Shown here: positions 17,348-19,997 of the stretch, one piece after another
Position numbering within the stretch: position 1 is the first letter of the stretch
How the letters are laid out: every line of letters starts with the position of its first letter
Assembly: GCA_963771045.1 (NCBI GenBank)
Contig: CAVYRW010000004.1
Coordinates: 1,984,001-2,048,000 of the forward strand
Reading direction: 5' to 3'
Origin: Waddliaceae bacterium
Lineage (GTDB): Bacteria > Chlamydiota > Chlamydiia > Chlamydiales > SLFE01
Length of the DNA: 64,000 nt
Notes under the pieces: model-generated
What the model saw: only the letters and a program-made list of their open reading frames with translations
Database searches by the model: none
What the model was told of the DNA's origin: nothing
Translations under genes and position numbers: made by a program

Positions 17348-17622
17348 TTAAATAACGAGAAATAGTAAGGAGGGAACACCCCAAGCGGCTAACCACGAAA
17401 TCGCTTCGTCCACGTTCATGAGATCTCCTTTGAAATAATTAGACATTTTATAATAAAATGGGGATGATAAAAAACCTTTAGGTGTTTGAATAAATCCTAA
17501 ATTTCGTCCATGGCGATCATTATTGCCAAGAAGACTATCTGCCAAGGTTAGATGCACAAATTTTTCCTGTTCTACCCTCCTGCCAGTTTTTTCTCCAATT
17601 ATTTGAACAATTGATTCACAAT
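17348..17622 (-). pseudogene. HipA-like kinase, 3' fragment
   Basis: ...FVHLTLADSLLGNNDRHGRNLGFI...SPFY resembles the HipA catalytic loop; joins in frame with 19187..19567 when the IS is removed. Confidence 0.75.
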
Positions 17623-17687
17623 GGCTTTGTTGCGTAATTAACCACAGAGCTCACAAGAGCGCACAGAGAGAATATGAGAGATTTGAT

Positions 17688-18632
17688 TTAAGCTGCTATT
17701 AATTCACTTTCAGGCATTCCCAGCTTTGTCATTATATTTAGTGCTTCACATTTTGCCCTTGATTCAGCCCTTTGGGTTTCCAGAGTTCTACTTCTTAAAT
17801 CATTTCCAAAGAATCGTTTAAATCTAAACATGGCTGTTTCTGCAAGTGATCGACGATGATAACCTTTCAACTTTTTCCATAATTTTCTTGCATCATCATC
17901 ACCTCCTAAACCTGAAATTTCCAGCAAACTGATATTCCGCATCTTCCAAGAAGGAGATATGTTTTCTCGAAAAACAGCATTCCTATTGGGTGGAATAATA
18001 GGAATTGAGCCGTGAACTACATTTGCAGCATAGCATCGCTTAGTATCATAAGCCCCATCTCCATATGTGCGCTTAACTGATTTCGGCATTACCTCGAGAA
18101 GTTTTGGATACACTTCACAATCTGCAACGTTATTTTCAGTAAGAATTTCGAAAATAATTTCGTGAGAGTCAGGGCAGACTGCCAGATGGAGCTTTCTCCA
18201 TGTTCGCCTTTTACTGATTCCATGCTGCCTAACTTTCCATTCACCCTCTCCGTACACTTTCAAACCGGTTGAATCGATTACAATATTGGTGACTTTTTTT
18301 TTCGAAAGTTTCTTCAACTCTTGCCCCAACAACTTAGCTCTCCGACAAATTTGAGTATAAGAAGGAATCGATAAACCAACAGATAAAATCATAACAAGAG
18401 ATGTCAAAAATCCTTCGAGTGCTCTCAATGGAAGATGAAAAACCGATCGAATAATGAGCGCGGTGAGAATAGCGTCATCAGAATAGAGTTTTGGACGCCC
18501 CTTTTTTCCTATTTCTTTTGGAGCCATCCACTTATTGATAGCATCTTCAGAAAACCAAACAGTTATGCTTCCCCTTTGAATAAGAGATTTGTTATAGTCG
18601 TTCCAGTTGCGAATGCGATATTTTGCCTTCAT
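17688..18632 (-). CDS. IS5 family (IS903 group) DDE transposase
   Basis: YRIRNWNDYNKSLIQRGSIT, IDSTGLKVYGEGEW, RRTWRKLHLAV, GDGAYD, GYHRRSLAETAMFRFK. Confidence 0.95.
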   Translation of the reverse strand: MKAKYRIRNWNDYNKSLIQRGSITVWFSEDAINKWMAPKEIGKKGRPKLYSDDAILTALIIRSVFHLPLRALEGFLTSLVMILSVGLSIPSYTQICRRAKLLGQELKKLSKKKVTNIVIDSTGLKVYGEGEWKVRQHGISKRRTWRKLHLAVCPDSHEIIFEILTENNVADCEVYPKLLEVMPKSVKRTYGDGAYDTKRCYAANVVHGSIPIIPPNRNAVFRENISPSWKMRNISLLEISGLGGDDDARKLWKKLKGYHRRSLAETAMFRFKRFFGNDLRSRTLETQRAESRAKCEALNIMTKLGMPESELIAA

Positions 18633-18716
18633 CTTGATCCTCCAATTTGTTGCAACTAAAAATTAGAGTATTAGGTATTTGTCGGCAAGCTCGCATTCGC
18701 CCTTTTTGGAGAAAAG

Positions 18717-19124
18717 ATGACTAGTACCCACACAACTGAAGAAGCCAACCAAAAAAGAAATGACCTTTTAACAGGGGAAATCATAGGTGCTGCGATTGAA
18801 GTTCATCGAAGATTAGGTCCAGGCTTGCTTGAATCGACATACGAAACTTGTCTTTGCTACGAGTTGAACCTTGCGGGTTTGAAAGTTAACCGGCAGATAC
18901 CAGTACCTATTATTTATCGTGATAAAAAGCTAGACTCAGGCTACCGGATCGATATGATAGTGGAAGATAAGGTTATTTTGGAGATAAAATCTGTGGCCAA
19001 TTTCTTGCCTGTTCATGAGGCCCAACTTCTATCCTATCTTAAGCATAATGGTGGTGGCAGAGGTTTGCTCATCAATTTCAATGTAAAACTTCTAAAAAAT
19101 GGGATTAGGCGTCTAATCATTTAA
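18717..19124 (+). CDS. GxxExxY protein (PD-(D/E)XK nuclease superfamily)
   Basis: IIGAAIEVHRRLGPGLLESTYE, YRIDMIVEDKVILEIKS, QLLSYLK..GLLINF. Confidence 0.92.
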   Translation: MTSTHTTEEANQKRNDLLTGEIIGAAIEVHRRLGPGLLESTYETCLCYELNLAGLKVNRQIPVPIIYRDKKLDSGYRIDMIVEDKVILEIKSVANFLPVHEAQLLSYLKHNGGGRGLLINFNVKLLKNGIRRLII

Positions 19125-19186
19125 TTCCTCTCTCATAATCTCTCAGTGAGCTCGGTGGTCTCAGTGGTGATTTATGCAACAACGCC

Positions 19187-19567
19187 ATCATACGGTTGAC
19201 CTGACTCAAAAAAATGATAAATATGAACAAGAGACGAACTTTTGAAATCTGACATAAAGTTTTTCGTAACAAAGCAAAGTTCATTTTCAGGCAATCGAAC
19301 TAAATAGTAACACGGAACATTGATTCCTAAAGCCTGAAGTATTTGATTACTAACAAATTCTGTTGATGACAATTCGGGATATTCTTTTTGCTTAACTTTT
19401 AAAATATAATTTACATCTCCAAGAGAAGCGGAATATTTTCGAAATTTTCCATGGAAAAAACTCGAATTGATTGGTTTAATTTGATTCGGTGATTGAGACT
19501 GCGACCTCACTCTAATATCAGCAAACTCTATAAATATGACACAAGTTTGTGTCACAAAAAGTCTCAA
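19187..19567 (-). pseudogene. HipA-like kinase, 5' fragment interrupted by the IS
   Basis: SSFFHGKFRKYS..YILKVKQKEYPELSSTEFVSNQILQALGINVP...FVTKNF, a HipA N-lobe pattern; ends at the IS right IR. Confidence 0.75.
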
Positions 19568-19814: not shown

Positions 19815-19997
19815 CTATTTCCTCCTGCCGAATAGACGGGCAAAAAGCCCCTTTTTCCGCTTCCGATAGACATGCTGCTCCTCACCCCAGCCGTTGATGT
19901 CTTGCATTTCAGCACCAATGATTCCCTTGCCGGGCTCGACTGCCTGATGCCTAAGCGGAGTATCTACAGGGTAATCCTTATACTTCTTTGGCCACAT
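19815..19997 (-). CDS. small hypothetical protein
   Basis: 60-aa ORF with AAGGA upstream, 3 bp from the zinc-ribbon gene, divergent from efp. Confidence 0.45.
   Translation of the reverse strand: MWPKKYKDYPVDTPLRHQAVEPGKGIIGAEMQDINGWGEEQHVYRKRKKGLFARLFGRRK

Follow-up and report, generated by a model that had tools for sequence, protein, structure and literature searches.

Why a small insertion sequence (IS) should carry a gene for a GxxExxY protein, and to which of its two genes its long, repeat-bearing ends belong, is the question raised by one locus in the genome of a Waddliaceae bacterium (Chlamydiota; assembly GCA_963771045.1). The window analysed is a stretch of 64,000 nucleotides from contig CAVYRW010000004.1 (positions 1,984,001 to 2,048,000), and the element lies at 17623-19186 of this window. 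It is real, recently active and well bounded. It is of a known kind, a transporter IS (tIS) of the IS903 group. What appears to be new is its passenger, an undescribed and predicted nuclease-plus-repeat cassette that is kept by selection.

The element and its copies

The element is 1,564 bp long, starting with GGCTTTGTTGC (17623) and finishing with GCAACAACGCC (19186). Its two open reading frames (ORFs) are divergent and 84 bp apart. The transposase matches NF033579 (E 4e-86, 289 bits against a cut-off of 140) and is 44% identical to proteins annotated as IS903B across residues 2-313. The other ORF matches TIGR04256 (E 3e-43, 147 bits against a cut-off of 35) and PF13366 (E 2e-41, 141 bits against 22). 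These ORFs, profiles and terminus sequences agree with an earlier note on this DNA, which had described IS903-like termini around a minus-strand transposase and an intact, divergent GxxExxY gene on the plus strand. The note had also seen no second inverted repeat (IR) between the two genes, and a search there for terminus-like 11-mers with at most one mismatch gave none. Promoter and terminator scans of the element returned matches at chance level.

There are 16 copies with both ends in the source genome (G000; other G and L numbers stand for further genomes and loci compared). Fifteen have exactly the 1,564 bp measured in the earlier note and one has 1,563 bp. Each 1,564-bp copy has 0-2 substitutions relative to the window copy, and 12 of the 16 are flanked by a perfect 9-bp duplication of the target. 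All 18 TIGR04256 matches in this genome fall inside the element: 16 are full genes, and the other two are fragments of one diverged copy, the seventeenth. The seventeenth copy (L273, G000:C4:1701314-1704285) has a 9-bp duplication of its own and is interrupted by another multi-copy IS of 1.4 kb, which is flanked by an 8-bp duplication and which we take to resemble the IS256 family. At least eight full copies were found in a genome of the same genus, and there are relatives in other chlamydial families. It is practically certain that the transposase and the GxxExxY gene are mobile as a single unit, as the earlier note had proposed. No copy was found that ends 50-100 bp above the transposase and lacks the GxxExxY gene; the gene is missing only from L272, which has no element ends.

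L272 (G000:C4:997659-998663) is a piece of 1,005 bp identical to window positions 17694-18698. It contains the transposase frame and promoter region, without IR, arm, GxxExxY gene or target duplication, and its upstream edge lies about where an ancestral plain IS body would be expected to start. No empty allele of it was found in three related genomes. A second IS5-type family is also present in the source genome (C4:48248-49138, 400009-400899, 956428-957318 and 2230311-2231192). Its transposase is 44-46% identical, and it has neither a GxxExxY gene nor this terminus.

The 12 duplicated target sites are AT-rich with a weak symmetric preference, and four of them interrupt frames of at least 120 codons. 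The 9-bp duplication and the AT-rich flanks are as in the IS903 group, which does not favour the altered target choice that the earlier note had considered. Four copies have no 9-bp duplication, among them the window copy, which splits a hipA-like gene with only 2 bp repeated. The split halves align to consecutive residues of an intact relative (a 305-aa frame in G001). The window copy may once have had a normal 9-bp duplication from which seven bases were later lost between AT dinucleotides. Upstream of the split gene, the ORF at 19815-19997 is a possible toxin-antitoxin partner, with no family match. In the same-genus genome G001, a copy of the element (L281, G001:C8:55849-57409) lies 65 bp from the end of an mfd-like gene, near the window's site but off it, and is an independent insertion into the same region.

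Outside these genomes, overlapping contigs from a salt-marsh metagenome span the element at about 99% identity, and none span the window flanks. A soil sequencing run has the element within one contig, of doubtful independence from the source sample. A single metatranscriptome contig of 217 bp (97% identity, depth 3.8) lies inside the GxxExxY gene and is no evidence of expression. A DNA search of a plasmid collection gave short transposase matches only, none spanning the element. In viral contigs, neither gene was present at the 120 or more end-pattern loci fetched from among the matches listed, which marks these as chance matches.

Two-layered ends and the probable origin of the element

The long ends consist of two layers. 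The outer layer is an IS903 IR of about 17 bp, and the inner layer is an arm of three CACNGAG-type words, spaced at a period of 8-9, with a purine-rich tail. The two ends are about 80% complementary across about 60 bp (E ~1e-6 to 1e-7). Here, IS903 relatives without GxxExxY gene or arms are called plain, elements with an IR plus a word arm are called armed, and short non-autonomous derivatives are called minis. The outer layer resembles the termini of plain IS903-group relatives (top score of 26.1 bits on a profile made from plain elements only). To this extent the long repeat-bearing ends of the earlier note were IS903 repeats as it had them. The note had missed the inner part, which appears to come from the GxxExxY system.

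The same words are found around free GxxExxY genes, which were surveyed as the 80 best metagenome relatives. With a wide definition of the word, there are at least two words upstream at 57 of the 80 loci, at least two inverted words downstream at 65, and both at 52, counted without a control. A narrower word was found upstream at 29, downstream at 28 and on both sides at 26, and in the wrong orientation at 5 and 7. An IS903 transposase stands beside the gene at one of the 80 loci, and an IS terminus lies outside the arm at one of the 57 that could be scored; in both cases this is L118, itself a member of this element. The neighbours of the free genes amount to 134 frames, 39 of them without a Pfam match; of the 95 with one, a single frame is a transposase and the others are mostly housekeeping genes. 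Beyond the IR, the end-to-end likeness of ten plain IS903 relatives scores from -11 to 0, and that of 10 of 11 armed elements scores 16-31. In 10 of the 11, likeness between an element's own two arms exceeds that to the average foreign arm. By sequence, the inner words appear to belong to the GxxExxY system and not to IS903. The arms are unlikely to be transposase sites, because plain relatives do without them and the spacer from the IR core to the first word varies from 7 to 31 nt. They are probably the site of the GxxExxY nuclease. The link between GxxExxY genes and inverted word arrays points to an undescribed enzyme-plus-repeat system.

Arms also occur in other settings. L274 (G000:C4:1320138) is a free, gene-less and complete arm hairpin between host genes, without IS ends. 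At L132, L141, L165 and L196, free GxxExxY genes lie 3' of methylmalonyl-CoA mutase genes and have their arms in opposite orientation. Five minis fold as long DNA hairpins, below the best of 50 mononucleotide shuffles, as is expected of inverted repeats.

Across Chlamydiota, the composite end pattern is present in 17 of 401 genomes, from nine families, and the reversed pattern has no matches (kin among these genomes are not independent). There are 30 transposase loci in the phylum. Six are at least 68% identical, of which four have the GxxExxY gene, one has a remnant and one has only 158 bp upstream. At the 24 loci with identity of 62% or less there is no GxxExxY gene and no 3' arm of two or more words, and in 19 of them the 5' IR lies 112-179 bp above the aligned transposase start. 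In GTDB, the gene is present at five of the best 80 transposase loci (four from one assembly, plus L041). Such a survey of co-occurrence had been suggested in the earlier note, and it finds the pair at four of the six close loci of the phylum and at none of the distant ones. An exception to the split by identity is G147, in which a broken, 56%-identical transposase has an armed 3' end. In the transposase tree, where the window's transposase is represented by its 80%-identical paralogue in the source genome, five armed transposases form a clade (100/99), and the placement of G147 has a p-AU of 0.097. The copy in G255, from another family, has a transposase of 93% identity, which points to horizontal transfer, and now has one stop in each gene.

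Non-autonomous derivatives of 125-659 bp retain an IR with its arm at each end; 9-bp duplications flank at least 12 of them. One genome, G186, has 20 matches to the composite-end pattern. Some minis (L225, L216, L200 in G186 and L032 in G028) contain an additional complete arm hairpin, which suggests continued arm rearrangement. There are also passenger-only forms, L210 (G267, 1501-2230) and L027 (G011, 1071-1550), which consist of IR, arm, a whole or partial GxxExxY gene, arm and an IR-like end. These are ancestral forms or else products of deletion.

Some indication of how the element was put together comes from aligning four armed with five plain elements. Both kinds have the same promoter-like block above the transposase, and in armed elements the start of the GxxExxY gene occupies the place of the 5' IR of plain elements. 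This indicates that the point of entry of the GxxExxY gene, with the arm downstream of it, was just internal to the 5' IR. The second arm would have come to sit just inside the 3' IR, with the old transposase promoter left in place. The arm that precedes free GxxExxY genes is absent between the two genes of the element. The transposase gene would thus occupy the cassette's loop, a place taken in free cassettes by the cassette's own gene alone. The best reading of these sequences is that an IS of the IS903 group absorbed a GxxExxY gene together with its repeat arms.

Several copies are mosaics. In the diverged copy L273, the transposase side has 78% DNA identity to the main family and the GxxExxY 3' side is identical to it; the synonymous divergence (dS) of the transposase is 1.6 in this copy. 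In the G255 copy, dS is 0.44 for the transposase and about 3 for the passenger. With strict labels, a single clade of element-borne passengers is rejected (p-AU 0.0013). One clade is compatible if the IR-less genes L004 and L117 are included (p-AU 0.44), a grouping picked after the tree was seen. The rejection under strict labels does not prove passenger swapping with free cassettes, as L004 has decayed IS-like ends (judged by eye) and adding L004 and L117 removes the rejection; escape from the element would also fit. By these sequences, there appears to be traffic between the element-borne and the free-standing states of GxxExxY genes, in one direction or both.

Features of the element and of the host gene that it interrupts (window coordinates)
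Feature	Position	Strand	Basis
Whole mobile element, IS903-group transposon with GxxExxY cassette	17623..19186		16 full copies in G000, 12 with 9-bp duplication; same ends in other sequencing runs
IS903-type terminal inverted repeat, transposase 3' side, ~17 bp, 11-bp core	17623..17639	+	Fits terminus consensus from plain relatives only
GxxExxY-type arm: words CACAGAG, CACAAGAG, CACAGAG, then purine-rich tail	17643..17681	+	Sequence; same arrays around free GxxExxY genes, none in plain IS903 relatives
DDE transposase, 314 aa, IS5 family, IS903 group	17688..18632	-	NF033579, PF13737, PF01609; 44% to IS903B over 312 aa
Likely transposase promoter (TTGCCG, 17 nt, TAATTT)	18660..18688	-	Inferred from conserved columns in 4 armed and 5 plain elements; consensus scan did not call it
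GxxExxY (PDDEXK_3) protein, 135 aa, predicted nuclease; D79, E89, K91, Q103-x3-Y107	18717..19124	+	Profiles, alignment, model, purifying selection
Inverted GxxExxY-type arm: minus-strand words CACTGAG, CACCGAG, CACTGAG and tail	19129..19166	-	Sequence; end-to-end alignment
IS903-type terminal inverted repeat, GxxExxY side	19170..19186	-	26.1 bits, top score on plain-IS903 profile
3' part of split hipA-like host gene, outside element	17348..17620	-	PF07804 E 3e-4; continuous with intact 305-aa frame in G001
5' part of split hipA-like host gene, outside element	19187..19567	-	PF07804 E 4e-5

The passenger protein and its repeats

The GxxExxY motif of the passenger is made up of G36, E39 and Y42. 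In an alignment of 69 sequences, D79, E89 and Y107 are invariant and K91 and Q103 are nearly so. The top matches of the structure model (pLDDT 91.7) are mostly PD-(D/E)XK proteins with modest scores. Foldseek matched Cas4 SSO0001, AdnA, lambda exonuclease and Hjc, none at E <=0.001, and VIA-align gave SwaI (Z 7.8, the best) and Cas4 (Z 6.4). The predicted fold is PD-(D/E)XK; the matches indicate the fold and not the substrate. This fold had been named in the earlier note, and the model matches together with the conserved D79, E89 and K91 speak for it. A sequence search of solved structures with the 69-row profile gave no matches at E up to 1, and a PHROGs search gave matches only at E 0.11 and 0.53. 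The score of a homodimer prediction for the protein was 0.01. Among 120 longer relatives, 100 are tandem two-domain proteins, and 98 of these have the D..ExK motif in the first domain only. These tandem sequences suggest a dimer working with one active site, possibly able to act as a nickase. Proteins of the tandem subfamily (P0001-P0100) are about 260-335 aa long; the remaining long relatives are fused in frame to housekeeping genes.

Inside the element, the passenger evolves under purifying selection, with a dN/dS (non-synonymous over synonymous divergence) of about 0.1. Over 135 codons, the window's passenger and that of a diverged copy in G001 (L293) differ by 17 synonymous and 6 non-synonymous substitutions (dN 0.020, dS 0.209, p 1e-7). 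Against the G255 copy, dN is 0.085 with the dS of about 3 given above, and in the diverged copy of the source genome dN is 0.045 and dS 0.82 over 30 codons. Between lineages, synonymous sites are saturated and the pN of the passenger is 0.16-0.29 (28 pairs from eight genes, including G214_L245, which is not shown to be element-borne). For segments of the transposase, dN/dS is about 0.06-0.2 in most comparisons. Since it is under purifying selection inside the element, the passenger is probably functional.

The words are kept at both ends across saturated divergence, which suggests that something maintains them, and by analogy with SsnA and REP/RAYT the passenger protein would be the simplest agent. 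In the best explanation, which as a whole comes close to an even chance but falls short of it, the passenger nicks the paired arms and repair from intact copies favours gene-bearing elements. The transposase would act on the outer 17 bp or so, as in the IS903 group, and would be sufficient for movement, because short derivatives without either intact gene carry 9-bp duplications. The passenger nuclease, probably as a dimer, would recognise the CACNGAG arms and nick them when they are paired as single-stranded hairpins. Repair from an intact copy would then copy the arm-bounded DNA, as has been proposed for Ssn/SRM and REP/RAYT units. Such nicking and repair would fit the matched arms and the mosaic copies. 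It would help gene-bearing copies to persist and to establish in new hosts, and selection would act mostly after horizontal transfer, when a lone copy must supply its own enzyme. Taken alone, a role in persistence for the passenger nuclease is possible but rather doubtful. It is unlikely, but conceivable, that two selfish systems have merged into a nested element with two modes of spread. The transposase would bring the element to new sites, and a GxxExxY dimer would cut arm-to-arm hairpins in minis and free empty hairpins, into which repair would copy the full element.

There are a number of points against nicking and repair at the arms. No arm-bounded copy without IS ends was found in the source genome, and there is no sign of a cassette layer that moves cargo alone. 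Only two clear free arm arrays are present in that genome (one of them a complete hairpin), which leaves few targets in trans. Intact passengers and many minis occur together in G011, as would not be expected if minis were converted efficiently. The match between the window's own arms is only modest, with 8 of 40 foreign comparisons scoring equally high. The spacer is 9 nt in 28 of 60 ends (which are not independent), so that a fixed geometry is possible in the main lineage. Mosaic copies can also be the product of ordinary homologous recombination among IS copies. In L290, a copy of 98.7% identity, the passenger has no synonymous and three non-synonymous changes, albeit few changes in all.

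Alternatively, GxxExxY could be an accessory of transposition that binds the arms by the IRs and pairs the ends, processes donor or target DNA by branch or flap cleavage, or damps the transposase. In every armed lineage and in each mini seen, the arms adjoin the inner side of both IRs. Purifying selection acts to a similar degree on the two genes, which diverge around the single 84-bp spacer, and the fold neighbours include junction resolvases and Cas4. However, plain IS903 relatives, some of them multi-copy, have neither gene nor arms, the IR-to-arm spacing varies by the 7-31 nt already given, the target duplication is an ordinary 9 bp, and a transposase adjoins free GxxExxY genes in one of 134 neighbour frames (39 of them without a Pfam match). 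An accessory role is unlikely, though less so than the other rivals.

It is less likely still that the passenger benefits the host cell, by repair, by control of incoming single-stranded DNA as in Ssn or by phage defence, with the IS as its vehicle. With all 18 family matches of the source genome inside the element, the host's supply does depend on it. In G002, an intact relative (L004) has survived without a transposase, between IS-like ends that have decayed, and SsnA modulates natural transformation in Neisseria (PMC11893778). The neighbours of free relatives are, however, mostly genes of housekeeping operons, and host benefit leaves unexplained both the arms at the two IS ends and the selection on each of 16 redundant copies. 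The defence role named in the earlier note is not supported, since PADLOC gave only Cas4 matches, and weak ones (about 40 residues at E 0.014-0.017).

An addiction or toxin-like module, which would cut unprotected DNA or harm cells that lose the element, is improbable. The passenger does have a restriction-enzyme-like predicted fold, and toxin-antitoxin passengers are known in Tn3 elements (PMC9330008). The SwaI match, with its Z below 8, reflects a common fold only, broken passengers are tolerated in several genomes, and by the ORF list there is no room in the element for a methylase, an antitoxin or a third gene. That the cassette is a neutral hitch-hiker, caught once by chance and passively carried, fits the trees if the two IR-less genes are allowed in the post hoc group and fits the deletion of the gene from many derivatives, but it is very improbable and already largely refuted by the selection data, with dN/dS of about 0.1 or lower inside the element at unsaturated and saturated distances, and frames and catalytic residues intact across lineages with saturated synonymous sites.

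Known relatives and the meaning of the element

The IS903-group entries ISPam1, ISPko1 and ISPpa8 are 1,050-1,054 bp long with 9-bp duplications, and terminal IRs are 15-27 bp (PMC3281130). The element shares with this group the transposase (44% to IS903B over its full length), short terminal IRs, multiple copies and a 9-bp target duplication (PMC13618097), of which the window copy itself has only 2 bp. It differs in its 1,564 bp, in a second, intact and divergent gene and in a second repeat layer inside both IRs. It is thus a passenger-bearing derivative of the IS903 group and not a plain member. IS elements with passenger genes are a known class, the tIS (PMC9330008, PMC10132070), and the element has, as described for these, one transposase, a single IR pair and an additional ORF that is moved along. 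The tIS passengers in PMC10132070 are described as unrelated ORFs of no known family. In contrast, this passenger comes with cis repeats of its own, divided between the two ends so that they enclose the transposase, and selection maintains the passenger in many host families.

SsnA, a small nuclease, cuts the single-stranded hairpin repeats that flank it (PMC11893778). Ssn/SRM units (SsnA-NTS) have a small single-domain nuclease gene between its own inverted repeats, and the repeats also occur without the gene (PMC11893778). Flanking inverted repeats are likewise present at 52 of the 80 free GxxExxY relatives. Ssn proteins are of the GIY-YIG type, whereas the passenger is predicted to be PD-(D/E)XK (PDDEXK_3 only in Pfam). 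Cleavage of single-stranded repeats has been demonstrated for Ssn and is a prediction for the passenger. The abstract and Discussion of PMC11893778 describe no unit fused to a DDE transposase. In REP/REPIN-RAYT systems (PMC3116915), inverted doublets of short words form hairpins and are linked to a cognate enzyme gene, as appears to be the case here. RAYT is a tyrosine transposase, whereas here the enzyme is predicted to have a restriction/Cas4-like fold and a separate DDE transposase brings about the movement.

The earlier note had compared the element with IS200/IS605-TnpB. The analogy holds loosely, in that both are small IS with a transposase and an accessory nuclease that may favour retention (bioRxiv 10.1101/2023.03.14.532601). 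In that source, TnpB uses an RNA guide to cut the donor joint that is re-ligated after peel-and-paste transposition. The enzymes differ, as TnpA is a tyrosine transposase and TnpB is of RuvC type, whereas the element has a DDE transposase and a PDDEXK_3 passenger. The element also makes 9-bp duplications, and the 62 bp from the GxxExxY stop to the terminus, mostly arm and IR, leave little room for a guide (no RNA-family search was made). TnpB counters precise excision, a process not known for the IS903 group, whose members duplicate their targets. Beyond a transposase with a retained nuclease, the analogy has no direct support.

The passenger is a clear member of the GxxExxY family (TIGR04256, PF13366). 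It differs from its relatives in being fixed in a transposon, as an IS903-type transposase is absent near 79 of the 80 metagenome loci. Cas4 has Fe-S cysteines. In the passenger alignment a single cysteine is conserved at >=90%, and the PADLOC match to Cas4 is weak, so that the passenger does not qualify as a Cas4 protein. A literature search of titles and the starts of abstracts, with subscription journals, supplements and ISfinder outside its scope, found no paper on the element or on the word arrays. For GxxExxY/PDDEXK_3 proteins, unknown function and multiple horizontal transfers are reported (PMC3424549).

GxxExxY proteins are widespread and are hardly mentioned in the searchable literature. 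Here a recently active transposon of 1.5 kb contains both the presumed system and its presumed sites, so that the function is open to standard transposition and cleavage assays. Close relatives of the element transpose in laboratory bacteria, and there are natural controls in the form of plain sister elements, minis and broken copies. The passenger would be a second kind of accessory nuclease retained by selection in an IS, beside TnpB/IscB. If the nested element with two modes of spread were true, it would have a homing and anti-cheater function without an RNA guide, it would show how a cassette family that occurs widely in prokaryotes works, and its enzyme would be a small single-strand nickase, programmable by repeat. 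For what the GxxExxY family likely does to its repeats, the element offers a natural test.

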